NCBI GenBank assembly: GCA_016180855.1
Contig: JACPAL010000018.1
Span: forward strand, 17,066 to 81,065
Reading direction: 5' to 3'
Source: Deltaproteobacteria bacterium
Lineage (GTDB): Bacteria; UBA10199; JACPAL01
Length of the DNA stretch: 64,000 nucleotides
Shown: one piece after another, positions 59,847 through 63,968 of the stretch
Position numbering within the stretch: position 1 is the first letter of the stretch
Layout of the letters: the number at the start of each line of letters is the position of its first letter
Program-made: the position numbers and the translations under genes
The notes under the pieces: generated by a model
Told to the model about the DNA's origin: nothing
What the model saw: the letters and a program-made list of their open reading frames with translations, nothing else
The model's database searches: none

Positions 59847-59946
59847 AACCACTCATCGAATCGAGAAATTCCTTGTTGGTCTTTGCGTTCTGCATCTTGT
59901 CGGTCAAGAACTCCATCGCATCGACCACGTTAAGCGGTTGCAGGAC
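59847..59946 (-). pseudogene. displaced duplicate of the last 33 codons of rho
   Basis: 100 bp identical to 62825-62924, encoding [33 protein letters not shown]. About 12 nt of residual similarity (HLNR versus HLDRK) continue upstream, then the sequence is unrelated. Confidence 0.65.
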
Positions 59947-62824
59947 ACGATTCAAATGAGTAACCGTTCTACTCAGAGAGCCCACAATAACCAGGGATCG
60001 GACCGCTGTTTCCGTCAGGATCAATACAGGTTTCCGTCGGAAGACAGTCAATATCGCTCGAATCAATTCTGCCTGCCCTTGTTGGATCGCAGATGTACTC
60101 CTGCACGGAATAAATAGTACGGCCATAACTTAATCTCGAGTGACAAGAATCAGCATAAATAAATGATTGATCTAGACTATCATGTACTGTCAACGTCACG
60201 GAACCTCCAATCCCTGGCATCATTCCACCATCGCTATCATCACAGCTAAAGGTAATACCTTCGTCAATTTCCTCATTGCAGTTGTCATCCCGGCCATCCA
60301 GCCGTTCGAGTTCTATACCGGGGTTTGTAGAAGCTCTATTATCGTCACAATCCCCACCCCCAAAGGAACAAATAGAAAGTATCCCATCCGAGACCATAGC
60401 CATATTCAGGTCGCAATAGTTATCACGATCATCATCACAACCCTCATCAACTCTCCCATTACAATCATTATCAGTATTGTCGCAGATTTCAGGGGCATAA
60501 ACACAATCTGGTTCACCTAAATCAATCTGTACCACGGCTACCCTCTCCGAAGAAGTCGATGGCCCGACAAAGCGGACCTGCCATCCAAGACCTGTCGTAC
60601 ATGTTTCGCCAGGAAGGATAAAACCATCAAAAAGGTCATCCCTCCAATCCTCGCGAGAGTTGGGGCTACAATCAAGCAAATAGGTATGGCGGCCATTCTC
60701 GTCTGTTGTACATCTCAAGAAAAGAACGCCGATCGTTGCAAAATCAAAAGAATACAGATTTTCGAGACGAGATTGATCTGCAGAAAGGATGGCATCCATA
60801 ATTATCATGCGATCATAACCAAGGGGCTCCCTGTATTCAACGGATAGGGTGTCACAAGGTTCCGTGACGAAGCGTTCTGCCCGGTAATCGTGAACGACGC
60901 CACTGGTCAGGGCATTATCTACTTCAAGCTGGATACATTGAGGATCGGTACTACCAGCTTCAACGGCCCCCAAGAGATCGGGGAGAGCAGAAGATAAACC
61001 AGCCTCCATCTCCAACCACCCCAATTTTTCCTTATAAGCACAGTTAAAATGGCCATGGCCAGGGTAGGCAGCCATCGTATCAAAGGGGTCCCCATAATCC
61101 GACCTCTCAAGACAACTCCCCCCAAAGACCGACTCGCCACAATCGAGGTCATGCGCATGATTCAAACCTAAGACATGCCCCCCTTCATGAAGGATAGTTT
61201 CATCATCAAAATGGTTACGCCCCATCGTGATGGTGTGCAAGGCAACCAACCCATCATCCGTGGGCCACTCATGCCTCCCTAAATATCTGCCATTGCCTGC
61301 AGCGGTAGGATACAAAAGAAGCCAATCATAATTGGCAAAGTTCACCTGATCCTCACAGAGACGGATCATAGTTGGAATGATAAGACCAGAAGAGATCGAC
61401 GGTCGCGTGCTATCTGCATAGGCCTCACAAACATCAAATCCTATGGAAAACTGACCAAAGGAAAGTTCTCTGAAGCTCTCTTCGGCCGATCTTGTCTCAC
61501 GATCAACCGTCGCCCGATCACTGATCGCCGCCTCATAAGGATCATTTTGCCAATGAACATACAAAACAATCCCTCTGGCGCCAGGACCCACTGATAAATT
61601 CACTAAGCTCCGAAATTCGTCTGGAAGAGTTTCATCGCTCAAGATAGTGGGATCGTTTAAATCCACTAAAGAATAACTCTGCAACACAGCCCCCATTTCC
61701 AATAACATTACAGCAAGGGAATTCATCTCAACAAAATTCATATCGGCGAGGAAGGTCGTGTCGAGATGAGCAAAGGCTACCGGGTCGCTAAATTGACTCT
61801 TAAAACTTTCATAGAAAGCAGTGGCTGCTTTGCCCACCTCAGAACACCAATTTTCCCCTTCAAGTTGCCTGAAAAACGCCATCTGATCTGAAATCAGATC
61901 AAGTAATTTCCCCTCCCCGATGAACTTTTCATAAAGCGCAGGACTTAAGTTCCCAACCCTTAAGATCGCTTGCTCAAGTTGCTCGAGTCTTTGGGGCCAT
62001 ACCAGCTTGAACTCCTCACGAAACAGTTGATTAACAAGACGAGGCGCCCGATGACTAAAATTCGCAATCGCTATTTTGGCCAAATCAGACTCGCTTTCTT
62101 TAATCAAATCCCCTTTCAGAACAGAAAGAATCTTGGCTATTTCATTGATCTTCGATACTTCCGGGGTACATTGAACTGATCCAAACTCAATAAGATCTTT
62201 TGATAGAAGTTGCTCCAGTTCCGCTGCCTCACAAAGGGCAATTTCTCTGGATAGACCAACGCTGTCCATCTCCTCTTCCAACGATTTTCGGGATTCACGA
62301 AGAACGGTGAGAAAATTTTCCATCGCCAGTTTTCCGCCCATTAACTTTTTCATCTCTTCCTCAATTCTTCTCCCCTCAATAATAAAAAGAAGAATCATCT
62401 CATTATCGAGAATCGCTCCTTCTTCCATCAGTCGCATCATCTCTGACTCTTTTTCCAGTAATCCCTGGATTCCTGACTCGACCTCTACCAGTCTCTTTTC
62501 AACTTCATCTTGTTTGAAGCGGACGGTTTCAAGGCGGGAGGATATCAGAGAGAGGGGGGGGGTACCCTCCGGCGGAAAGGGGCAGCTAAACGCCCAAAGT
62601 TGGTTTGGCAGGGAGAAAACAAACAGGAGAACAACCAGGATCGGTATGTTGCGTGGCATAATCACCTCCCGTGAATGGTAGATATGCCATATTCATGCCA
62701 AATTCTGATTGTATAAAACTAGGTGATCAACTTTATGAAACTATTGTTAAATCTGAGTGTGGTCTTGTCTCTTTGTGAAGAGTAAAACGAGAAATGAAGT
62801 TCTGGTGAAAGAAAGTCTATTCTC
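59947..62824 (-). mobile_element. AT-rich single-gene islet inserted at the 3' end of rho, bounded by 100-bp direct repeats; no integrase present
   Basis: Perfect direct repeats at 59847-59946 and 62825-62924. The interior GC is about 44% against about 53% in the flanks. It carries only the metalloprotease gene and its AT-rich promoter. Confidence 0.5.
59969..62665 (-). CDS. secreted metzincin-like zinc metalloprotease with N-terminal coiled-coil region and C-terminal MopE-like Cys/Asp-rich repeats
   Basis: Signal peptide, HEGGHVLGLNHAHD (HExxHxxGxxH) and repeats such as CDDNRASTNPGIELERLDGRDDNCNEEIDEG. RBS GGGAGGTGA upstream. AT-rich (about 44% GC) relative to the flanks. Confidence 0.75.
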   Translation of the reverse strand: MIMPRNIPILVVLLFVFSLPNQLWAFSCPFPPEGTPPLSLISSRLETVRFKQDEVEKRLVEVESGIQGLLEKESEMMRLMEEGAILDNEMILLFIIEGRRIEEEMKKLMGGKLAMENFLTVLRESRKSLEEEMDSVGLSREIALCEAAELEQLLSKDLIEFGSVQCTPEVSKINEIAKILSVLKGDLIKESESDLAKIAIANFSHRAPRLVNQLFREEFKLVWPQRLEQLEQAILRVGNLSPALYEKFIGEGKLLDLISDQMAFFRQLEGENWCSEVGKAATAFYESFKSQFSDPVAFAHLDTTFLADMNFVEMNSLAVMLLEMGAVLQSYSLVDLNDPTILSDETLPDEFRSLVNLSVGPGARGIVLYVHWQNDPYEAAISDRATVDRETRSAEESFRELSFGQFSIGFDVCEAYADSTRPSISSGLIIPTMIRLCEDQVNFANYDWLLLYPTAAGNGRYLGRHEWPTDDGLVALHTITMGRNHFDDETILHEGGHVLGLNHAHDLDCGESVFGGSCLERSDYGDPFDTMAAYPGHGHFNCAYKEKLGWLEMEAGLSSALPDLLGAVEAGSTDPQCIQLEVDNALTSGVVHDYRAERFVTEPCDTLSVEYREPLGYDRMIIMDAILSADQSRLENLYSFDFATIGVLFLRCTTDENGRHTYLLDCSPNSREDWRDDLFDGFILPGETCTTGLGWQVRFVGPSTSSERVAVVQIDLGEPDCVYAPEICDNTDNDCNGRVDEGCDDDRDNYCDLNMAMVSDGILSICSFGGGDCDDNRASTNPGIELERLDGRDDNCNEEIDEGITFSCDDSDGGMMPGIGGSVTLTVHDSLDQSFIYADSCHSRLSYGRTIYSVQEYICDPTRAGRIDSSDIDCLPTETCIDPDGNSGPIPGYCGLSE

Positions 62825-63968
62825 AACCACTCATCGAATCGAGAAATTCCTTGTTGGTCTTTGCGTTCTGCATCTTGTCGGTCAAGAACTCCATCGCATC
62901 GACCACGTTAAGCGGTTGCAGGACCATCAGCTTCCGATCCAGATGGATCTCGGCATTGCCGGTCCCCTTGAATTCTTCAAAGATAACTTCGTCCATCCGG
63001 CTTCCGGTATCAATAAGGGCTGTGGCTATGATCGTGAGGCTTCCCCCATCTTCGACATTCCGTGCCGCCCCAAAAAATCGCTTCGGTTTGTGAAGCGCGT
63101 TGGAGTCGACACCCCCTGAGAGGATCTTTCCCGAGGGAGGAACAACCGTATTATAGGCCCGCGCAAGCCGAGTGATCGAATCCAGAAGAATCACGACATC
63201 CTTTTTATGCTCCACGAGGCGCTTCGCCTTCTCAATGACCATCTCAGCGACCTGTACGTGACGGGTTGCAGGCTCATCAAAGGTTGAGGAAACAACCTCC
63301 CCTTTGACGGAACGCTGCATGTCGGTCACCTCTTCCGGCCGCTCATCGATGAGCAGGACGATCAACGCAACCTCCGGATGATTAGAGGAGATCGCATTGG
63401 CAACGTTCTGCAGCATCATCGTTTTGCCTGTGCGGGGAGCCGCTACAATAAGGGCCCGCTGCCCCTTTCCGATCGGCGACATGAGATCCACAATGCGGGT
63501 CGTGTAATTTTTCGGGTCGTATTCGAGCCGGAGTCTCTCATTCGGATAGAGCGGAACGAGGTTCTCAAAAAGAATCTTTTCACGAGCCACTTCGGGAGAT
63601 TCGTAATTGACCGATTCCACCTTGACCAAGGCAAAGTAACGCTCCGAATCCTTGGGGGCACGAACCTGGCCGGAGACCATGTCACCCGTCCTCAACGCAA
63701 ATTTCCGGATCTGGGAGGGAGAAATATAGATATCATCCGGTCCGGGGAGATAGTTGTACTCCGGAGCCCTGAGAAAACCAAACCCATCCGGCAGGATTTC
63801 CAGAACCCCCTGACCGTAGACCATGCCGTTCCGTTCAATGTGATGGTTGAGGAGCGTGAAAATCAGCTCCTGGCGCCTCATCCCAGCCCCACCCTCAATG
63901 CCAAACTGATGGGCCATCTCCACAAGCTCGCTGATCTTGCGGTTTTTCATCTCGCTTAAATTCATCAC
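62823..63968 (-). CDS. rho: transcription termination factor Rho (variant lacking arginine-finger segment)
   Basis: About 65-70% identical to E. coli Rho across the N-terminal RNA-binding and ATPase domains. P-loop, Q-loop and R-loop are all present. The sequence jumps from ...[11 protein letters not shown] directly to [14 protein letters not shown]. Confidence 0.85.
62825..62924. repeat. 100-bp direct repeat (copy 2), last 33 codons of rho
   Basis: Identical to 59847-59946. Confidence 0.85.

Follow-up and report, generated by a model that had tools for sequence, protein, structure and literature searches.

The locus described here raises the question of how a gene foreign to its surroundings came to lie between two copies of the 3' end of rho, and of how much of this arrangement belongs to the genome and how much to its assembly. 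It was found in a groundwater 'Deltaproteobacteria' MAG of BioProject PRJNA640378, in a window of 64,000 nt (the whole stretch of DNA that was analysed). The source project used MEGAHIT at default settings followed by IDBA-UD scaffolding, and sister MAGs are listed under the same accession. Its Ag-site runs include the source sample, and the population is present in SRR12113425 and SRR12113431. The islet and its borders, read in the direction of rho, are as follows.

62825 to 62924, minus strand: right (rho-proximal) repeat copy, the 33 terminal codons of rho and the T of its stop codon.
62660 to 62824, minus strand: islet leader of 165 nt, AT-rich, with the RBS GGGAGGTGA ahead of the ATG.
59969 to 62659, minus strand: cargo gene of 896 aa (NCBI MBI2068191.1), with its ATG start at 62659 and the RBS GGGAGGTGA.
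59955 to 59968, minus strand: islet tail, the 14 nt after the protease stop, aacggttactcatt, present in the window, in Logan contig L004 and in sister-MAG contig L005.
59947 to 59954, minus strand: TGAATCGT, the first 8 nt of a 126-nt repeat and the LNR codons of rho, present in L004, in L005 and in the native rho of contig L002.
59847 to 59946, minus strand: left (distal) repeat copy, followed by AG (making a TAG stop) and then by native downstream DNA.

The perfect direct repeat of 100 nt that an earlier note had described at 59847-59946 and 62825-62924 was confirmed in the window, where the pair is unique of its kind, and so was its content, the T of the rho stop codon and the 33 codons before it. 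After the right copy the stop becomes TGA through the GA at 62824-62823. The left copy runs into TAG, which also ends rho in a sister strain. A third copy of the rho tail, the sign of a tandem element, was sought and none was found. The inserted segment measures 2,870 nt (59955-62824), and the lower GC content ascribed to it was borne out: 0.46, against 0.513 +/- 0.014 in 286 same-size windows elsewhere, none of which was lower. Its tetranucleotide distance is 0.28, the maximum elsewhere in the window being 0.22. One long ORF lies between the repeat copies, in agreement with the single gene reported. The earlier note had also given this gene an AT-rich promoter and a strong RBS; the AT-rich leader, which is identical in L004, and the RBS GGGAGGTGA both stand, while neither a consensus promoter nor a terminator was detected in the leader.

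The extent of the repeat differs between assemblies. The same population has been assembled independently in Logan L004 and in the sister-MAG contig L005, and in both the left copy is 126 nt long, against 100 nt in the window. L004 consists of 30 nt of the repeat end, the 2,870 nt and TGAATCGTGTCTGGATCCTCCGCAAGGTCC, which add up to exactly 2,930 nt; 2,911 nt of it are identical to the window. The NCBI contig L005 reads from the end of the protease gene through a full 126-nt copy into a gene of 345 aa. In Logan contig L001 the first 30 nt are repeat end, the downstream flank comes next, and 11,180 nt match with 0 mismatches. The left junction of the window thus conflicts with both L004 and L005, each of which has 18 extra nt there and is otherwise 99-100% identical. 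This 18-nt stretch, GTCTGGATCCTCCGCAAG, follows TGAATCGT and is missing at 59946/59947 in the window contig only. The resemblance to rho reported upstream of the left copy ('HLNR versus HLDRK') was a mis-assignment, TGAATCGT being the codons for LNR in the LNRVWILRK of rho itself. Contig joining is the most likely source of the exact 100-bp boundary and of the 'decay within 12 nt'.

Both the insertion itself and the duplicated rho tail are real; independent assemblies also show the E->U->D and R->E junctions. That the duplication should be a chimera of two strains, one reading from rho into the protease gene and the other from rho into the 345-aa gene, so that no genome holds both copies, we consider highly improbable. 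At least two strains with 96% identical rho do co-occur and fragment the assemblies, and graphs at k=31 branch at both repeat ends. Against this, L005 and L004 read continuously from the 3' end of the protease gene into the rho tail, and L005 runs on into the 345-aa gene; the distal junction therefore lies on one molecule. In L004 a rho tail also precedes the leader of the protease gene, and the sole account of this that dispenses with rho would require that a third locus end in this sequence too.

The right junction (rho, full repeat, islet) is found in no independent assembly, as the Logan contigs break inside rho; L006, approached via the upstream neighbour of rho, stops at 63321. We attribute these ends to branching caused by the co-occurring second strain. 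Because the right junction is not seen independently, an intact rho in this strain is something that we infer. The gene as deposited has the following features.

62823 to 63968, minus strand: rho as written, 35 codons short of all its relatives, with the Pfam domains Rho_N, Rho_RNA_bind and ATP-synt_ab.
62924 to 62925, minus strand: junction at which 105 nt (35 codons) of rho are missing, probably a scaffolding join; the intact counterpart is in L002.

The true start of rho lies beyond the end of the window, and the NCBI annotation gives a protein of 432 aa (MBI2068192.1). It had been supposed that the right repeat copy simply completes rho. This is not so, since the ORF is 35 codons short at the repeat edge 62924/62925. 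We located the gap by tblastn against E. coli Rho and by alignment with P0001, P0121 and P0003-P0023. The absent stretch corresponds to EKRIFPCMDVN.SGTRKEELLL....LNRVWILRK and includes the Arg-finger segment EKRIFP; in nucleotides it is GAGAAGCG...CGCAAG. E. coli Rho and every close relative have its 35 codons, which are missing only here, being kept in the sister strain (96% nt identity; contig L002, intact rho of 467 aa, P0121) and in all relatives (~80% identity). A search for them elsewhere in the window found none. The join in rho reads CTGATG|GTCCTGCAACC and that at the left copy AATCGT|GTCCTGCAACC, so that both gaps (62924/62925 and 59946/59947) share one end base of the 100-mer. As a separate observation, Rho entries from other MAGs in the database carry internal duplications (P0002).

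Taken together, the two assemblies with 126 nt, the gaps ending at the same base and the MEGAHIT/IDBA-UD pipeline make it very likely that the repeat edges and the truncated Rho are local joining artefacts. The repeat of 126 nt would have been beyond the assembler's resolution at the coverage that we presume for this region, and the overlapping contigs would then have been joined by the paired-end scaffolder; the scaffolder of IDBA-UD merges contigs with negative gaps. In this way the deposited contig would have cut both copies down to one 100-mer, with the loss of 105 nt at 62924/62925 and 18 nt at 59946/59947. The case resembles repeat-associated misassembly in short-read MAGs, in that the anomalies lie exactly at the repeat edges, the repeat is longer than most of the k-mers used, other assemblies conflict with the contig and a conserved gene is broken. 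It differs in that only the repeat edges are hit here and the insertion is independently reproduced. Were the contig right as written, rho would have an in-frame deletion of 35 codons, the distal copy a deletion of 18 nt, and the true repeat would be 100 nt; the Rho protein would in that case have no activity, or a copy elsewhere in the genome would stand in for it. We regard this as unlikely. De Bruijn contigs normally hold only read-supported k-mers, both gap lengths are divisible by 3, NCBI annotates the 432-aa protein, and the 126-nt assemblies may stem from other samples. However, this reading needs two independent deletions ending at the same base in both repeat copies, and the lost segment carries invariant catalytic residues conserved in every relative. 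It also has to accept a left junction contradicted by two assemblies that are otherwise 99-100% identical, a repeat length equal to an assembler k-mer size and a pipeline scaffolder that is not overlap-based.

The interval behind rho was compared across five related haplotypes. On its far side the window holds two genes.

58697 to 59734, minus strand: orphan ORF of 345 aa, GC3 0.44, absent from relatives.
57975 to 58700, plus strand: NAGPA-family gene, with which the conserved genes of the far flank begin; it adjoins rho directly in relative L008.

In L008 rho abuts NAGPA-HlyD-GlyRS-PPDK with no insertion. L002 has rho, TAG, 8 nt and the last 42 nt of the 345-aa gene, which is all that the sister strain retains of that gene, with one tail copy and no protease gene. 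The empty site proposed by the earlier note thus exists as insertion-free relatives (L008 and L002), while the isogenic form, rho followed by an intact 345-aa gene, was not found. The 345-aa ORF has no homologue outside its own cluster and none in species-representative genomes; it counts as the second variable gene in this hotspot. In a further relative, L009, a different AT-rich insert of 1,252 nt (GC 0.44) lies behind rho and carries one secreted ORF of 290 aa. It is followed by a copy of the terminal rho codons, 26 nt with 24/26 matching, and 0/100 shuffles matched so well; the two rho-tail copies differ mainly at synonymous positions. A motif common to the window islet and the L009 insert was sought and none was found. 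Across the five haplotypes, the number of unrelated genes in the rho-NAGPA interval is 0, 1, 2 or 3, with duplicated rho termini in 2/5 and, in L010, variable genes without any repeat. Calling the insertion unusual was therefore an overstatement, the interval behind rho being a general variable hotspot in the clade. Hotspots of chromosomal gene gain and loss occur between conserved core genes, and the rho-NAGPA interval with its variable, unrelated genes is of this type; generic hotspots, in contrast, do not normally leave duplicated ends of a flanking gene. The second, unrelated insertion flanked by rho tails in L009 favours a recurrent, possibly site-specific process. It also hints, as a side observation, at a shared att site.

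The cargo is a predicted secreted metzincin-like protease, an assignment made from sequence. Its 896 aa comprise an N-terminal signal-like segment, a coiled-coil region and C-terminal Cys-rich repeats of the MopE type. The zinc motif HEGGHVLGLNH at residue 491 fits HExxHxxGxxH, and E492, G494, H495 and H501 are invariant across 16 homologues. None of the Pfam or NCBIfam peptidase models matches the protein, its homologues match M6, M43, M11 and M66 only below threshold, and PDB profiles give only weak matches to serralysin, MMP and adamalysin, at the zinc motif. A full HMMER search with the protease retrieved only the partial copy of the sister, distant relatives of the catalytic domain and many Cys-repeat proteins. 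In genome contigs the protease gave only a Cys-repeat match in a Myxococcales MAG, and in metagenome and viral contigs no match; the repeat DNA had no match in JGI metagenomes, and searches of phage and plasmid DNA gave none. No donor in which rho natively precedes this protease gene was found in these searches.

As to the class of element, the earlier note had seen no tRNA, integrase or transposase nearby. This held for tRNA in the window and for integrase and transposase domains over 32-59 kb and 12 kb beyond rho, and the single ORF of the islet has no recombinase domain. A transposon, IS or MITE was rejected, as the islet ends have no terminal inverted repeats, the duplicated stretch measures 126 nt and no transposase was found. 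An integron cassette was also rejected: behind the ORF stands duplicated rho coding sequence in place of an imperfect-palindrome attC, and no intI lies nearby. The window being without tRNA, tRNA-linked integration was set aside as well. What remains of the integrative-element pattern is a foreign insert bracketed by duplicated rho termini; its attL/attR origin is putative, since no integrase, cognate element, phage or plasmid copy was found. The direct repeats overlap the target gene's end, the repeat ending at the rho stop, and rho itself would be intact.

A CIME is a decayed remnant of an ICE or IME that keeps attL and attR and no longer has the genes for its integration and transfer (Guedon et al. 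2017, PMC5704250). The islet has this composition, with both candidate att copies kept and genes for integration and transfer absent. Streptococcus thermophilus provides the classic CIMEs, located at the fda 3' end. Like a CIME, the islet sits between direct repeats that hold a housekeeping gene's 3' end, lacks genes for a recombinase or for transfer, carries small cargo and is located where further variable genes have accreted. It differs in that no cognate ICE, IME or integrase was found for the rho 3' end, the target and the host lineage are new, there is only one gene and mobility is here putative. An ICE or IME with an integrase for the same att site was found in none of the five related haplotypes, and no copy of the element at other sites or in other genomes in genome, metagenome and viral contigs or in phage and plasmid collections. 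Nothing was found in the literature on rho as an attB site, and we know of no ICE, IME or integrase that uses the rho 3' end. Phage 21 and e14 integrate in the 3' end of E. coli icd and carry a substitute gene end. As there, one tail copy would complete the gene and the displaced tail would stay downstream, and, again as in icd, the differences between the L009 copies are mainly synonymous. However, those elements encode their own integrase and span tens of kb, whereas the copies of the window islet are 100% identical and the islet has no recombinase.

On balance, and with moderate confidence, we favour a foreign islet behind an intact rho, with real flanks of 126 nt, artefactual edges in the window and the nature of an att-flanked, CIME-like remnant. 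A horizontally acquired segment of 2,870 nt (59955-62824) with one protease gene is inserted directly behind the rho coding sequence. It is most likely flanked, in the real genome, by two identical copies of rho's 3' end, each of 126 nt, and rho is most likely intact, the proximal copy finishing rho with a TGA from the insert, while the distal copy would be the displaced, non-functional tail that has kept its native TAG and native downstream DNA. This is the architecture that site-specific integration of an element with a replacement gene end (attL/attR) would leave. As the islet has no recombinase, we describe it as an att-flanked remnant that lacks an integrase, having either decayed or being mobilised in trans, in an interval that is a recurrent gene-gain hotspot of the clade.

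A non-site-specific origin is possible, given that neither an integrase nor a related element with the same repeat was found and that the repeat lengths differ (126 and 26 nt); as an account of this insertion we hold it to be rather doubtful. DNA of a relative with a different gene behind rho would pair in rho and join illegitimately inside the recipient's rho tail, by homology-facilitated illegitimate recombination, the interval being a recombination hotspot, or a small circle with a rho tail would enter by single crossover. The absence of an integrase within 32 kb on one side and 12 kb on the other is consistent with this, as are the different interval genes in every relative, some without a repeat (L010), and the unequal repeats. 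Moreover, the repeat stops exactly at the rho coding end, as two orthologous gene ends would, and the 100% identity over its 126 nt is what homologous exchange between close strains would give. The missing donor argues against it, as does an islet composition far from that of the lineage itself. Two independent insertions, too, keep an in-frame copy of the rho terminus, which is typical of elements that target gene ends. A bolder proposal is that, in this uncultivated groundwater lineage, the last codons of rho are the attachment site of undescribed, integrase-less, AT-rich cassettes with a single gene for a secreted protein, inserted in trans by a recombinase whose gene lies elsewhere. Its members would be the window islet with its 126-nt repeat and the unrelated L009 insert with its 26-nt repeat, and we consider it quite improbable.

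For the reading that we favour, the practical consequence is that MBI2068192.1, which is without the catalytic arginine-finger segment, should not be taken for a natural variant of Rho; its shortening is very probably a scaffolding error beside the 126-nt repeat. It exemplifies the damage to conserved genes in MAGs that repeats slightly exceeding the assembler's k can cause. Should a recombinase directed at the rho 3' end come to light, the locus would represent a new integration site and a minimal type of cassette; without one, it would be one more small genomic islet. The remaining biology is modest, a strain-variable, acquired protease gene behind the essential rho, in an interval that gains genes.

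A whole-window search recovered only one long perfect direct repeat, of 100 nt (59847-59946 and 62825-62924), which consists of the final 33 codons of rho and the T of its stop codon. After the proximal, rho-side copy comes GA, so that its stop codon is TGA; the distal copy continues with AG and ends in TAG. The genes concerned are as follows.

62823-63968, minus strand: rho, extending past the window end
59969-62659, minus strand: 896-aa ORF (the protease), its true ATG preceded by the RBS GGGAGGTGA
58697-59734, minus strand: 345-aa ORF

The inter-repeat segment (59955-62824, 2,870 nt) has a GC content of 0.46, against 0.513 ± 0.014 in 286 equal-size windows elsewhere, none of which is lower; its tetranucleotide distance of 0.28 is the window's largest (maximum elsewhere 0.22). 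The window contains no tRNA, and neither terminal inverted repeats at the islet ends nor promoter consensus or terminator enrichment at the islet could be detected. The earlier note had described a perfect 100-nt repeat of rho tail and stop-codon T around a low-GC, single-gene insert with no tRNA, and these facts were confirmed. A 93-aa ORF (59845-60126, minus strand) arises where the rho-tail frame reads back into the 3' end of the protease gene, and is almost certainly no gene; NCBI annotates a small protein, MBI2068190.1, somewhere in the stretch that separates the protease from the 345-aa gene. A second direct-repeat pair (17653-17751 and 37500-37598; 99 nt, 98% identical) lies 19.8 kb apart, and an intergenic REP/MITE-like family of about 55-135 nt, 83-93% alike, was also observed.

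16241-16299, 28722-28759, 32927-33011 and 47840-47975 of the window, and 4999-5084 of the sister-strain contig L002; both orientations: REP/MITE-like copies

The 896-aa protein carries an N-terminal hydrophobic signal-like segment, a coiled-coil region, HEGGHVLGLNH at residue 491 and MopE-type Cys-rich repeats at about 724-810. A full HMMER search returned 2,238 proteins at E <= 1e-3, mostly via the Cys repeats, while a smaller subset aligned over residues 363-700 with identity of at most 39%. In all 16 homologues of this region examined, E492, G494, H495 and H501 are invariant. Metzincins were the only matches of the family profile in the PDB, and weak ones, and none of the curated peptidase families reached threshold. 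The label secreted metzincin-like metalloprotease is thus reasonable, with support at the level of motifs. The 345-aa ORF, of which PGAP annotates only the C-terminal 217 aa, is an orphan whose GC3 of 0.44 is low, like that of the protease gene; since relatives at 80% identity lack it, it is probably another acquired gene.

Comparison with relatives revealed sites that lack the insertion, though the exact arrangement named in the earlier note, rho followed by an intact 345-aa gene, was not among them. In L008 (JACPAK, Rho 79% identical), rho abuts NAGPA-HlyD-GlyRS-PPDK-SMC, which is the window order minus the protease and the 345-aa gene. L002 lacks the protease; its single tail copy is followed by TAG, 8 nt, the terminal 42 nt of the 345-aa gene (39/42 identical) and a MITE-like repeat, with which the contig ends shortly 3' of rho. 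Set against the window, the arrangement at L002 4932-4990 (JACPIZ010000018.1) amounts to a deletion of about 1.1 kb. The protease segment is a genuine insertion. In two further relatives (L010, L011) the same interval is occupied, without any repeat, by an FG-GAP gene of 605 aa that lies on the other strand. In L009 (Logan SRR22387938, 9357-10634; Rho 81% identical) the interval holds a 1,252-nt insert of GC 0.44 (locus 0.52) with one 290-aa ORF bearing a signal peptide. Behind this insert stands AAAGACTTCCTCGACTCGATGAGTTCTTAA, which repeats the final codons of rho in frame with 24 of 26 nt matching; most of the differences are synonymous, and none of 100 shuffles matched as well. An MNT/HEPN-like pair lies between this copy and the NAGPA gene. 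A rho-adjacent insert followed by a displaced rho tail was thus seen in two of five haplotypes, and the differing intervals make rho-NAGPA a recurrent gene-gain hotspot.

The rho gene itself is unusual as written. Aligned with E. coli Rho, the window ORF shows a clean 35-residue gap with its edges exactly at 62925 and 62924, the latter being the repeat's first base. The nearest database relatives (75-81% identical) all keep the segment HLDRKLM-EKRIFPCMDVN.SGTRKEELLL...., as does the 467-aa Rho of the sister strain (96% nt identity, another MAG of the same site); among the proteins compared, these central 35 residues are absent only from MBI2068192.1 (432 aa), and the window holds no other copy of the missing 105 nt. 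The arginine finger (E. coli R366) lies in this segment, so the protein as written should be inactive. At its N-terminus, Rho of this lineage and of several relatives is extended by about 50 Pro/Ser-rich aa, not found in E. coli Rho and here lying beyond the window end (>64000). In two Rho homologues of other MAGs (574 and 544 aa) parts of the ATPase core are duplicated internally; these proteins look as if strains living together had been assembled into chimeras, a problem of the kind met in the window.

Independent assemblies cover the distal junction. L001 (SRR12113431) matches the window identically across 11,180 nt and starts with exactly 30 nt (k-1) of the repeat 3' end, then AGctctag; the assembly graph thus branches where the repeat stops. 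L004 (SRR12113425; found in two samples) contains the 896-aa gene unchanged, in 2,930 nt: 30 nt of repeat end, 2,870 window-identical nt and 30 nt, TGAATCGTGTCTGGATCCTCCGCAAGGTCC, of native rho (LNRVWILRKV) as in the sister rho. The unbroken L005 (JACPIZ010000143.1) runs from the protease 3' end through aacggttactcatt, TGAATCGT GTCTGGATCCTCCGCAAG, the 100-mer and AGctctag into the 345-aa gene. Two independent assemblies thus give the distal repeat a length of 126 nt, and the window is short by 18 nt at 59946/59947. What the earlier note compared as HLNR and HLDRK turns out to be the LNR of LNRVWILRK.

The 105-nt and 18-nt discrepancies stop at the same base, the 100-mer start, in both copies. 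PRJNA640378, the project that lists the sister MAGs, states as its pipeline MEGAHIT at default k values, then the IDBA-UD scaffolding function. A repeat of 126 nt collapses at all default k values smaller than 141; with the tens-fold coverage that such bins usually have, contigs would break there, and continuity across both copies must therefore come from the scaffolder. The IDBA-UD scaffolder probably merges contigs with a negative estimated gap by trimming, without overlap alignment. A contig beginning with the final ~99-100 nt of the repeat, appended to a truncated predecessor, would produce the picture in the window. Were both deletions genuine, two independent events with an identical endpoint and the loss of an essential catalytic segment would be required. 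No independent contig spans the proximal junction: those of Logan and NCBI stop within rho, at 63321 and 63367, owing to a co-occurring second strain whose rho is 96% identical. The two haplotypes are 95.9% identical, with 44 substitutions (window 62931-63885 against L002); mosaic identity of neighbouring genes among three MAGs points to strain mixing or recombination, which explains the breaks. We consider it quite likely that rho is intact in the window strain. Of the earlier description, the repeat itself stands, while its exact 100 bp, the fast decay of similarity and the implied normal rho end are probably products of contig joining.

The rho-tail anatomy, the repeat end at the stop codon, the foreign composition and the second example in L009 are what elements integrating into a gene 3' end leave behind: one tail copy would complete rho, and the displaced tail would stay downstream beside native DNA. 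This agrees with the attL/attR reading of the earlier note, but neither the 32 kb on one side nor the 12 kb on the other contains a recombinase, the collections searched yielded no related element and no phage or plasmid copy, and a literature search found rho nowhere named as an attB site. A site-specific origin is thus a tentative proposal, to which we give slightly less than even weight. The main rival is illegitimate recombination facilitated by homology, or else a small circle with the rho tail that integrated by a single crossover; this accounts for the integrase absence, for copies that are 100% identical and for the unequal repeat lengths, but its donor arrangement was not found, and we regard it as rather unlikely. 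The closest named concept is the CIME, which retains attL and attR but has lost integration and transfer genes (PMC5704250). The islet is a candidate for this class; the link to a cognate ICE or IME integrase that defines a CIME was not found for it.

The Rho sequence deposited for this MAG very likely results from misassembly and should be treated with caution. Apart from that, the window shows a small islet behind rho that varies between strains and has no integrase, a fresh instance of an already known kind of feature, at a position which repeatedly gains genes in this lineage.
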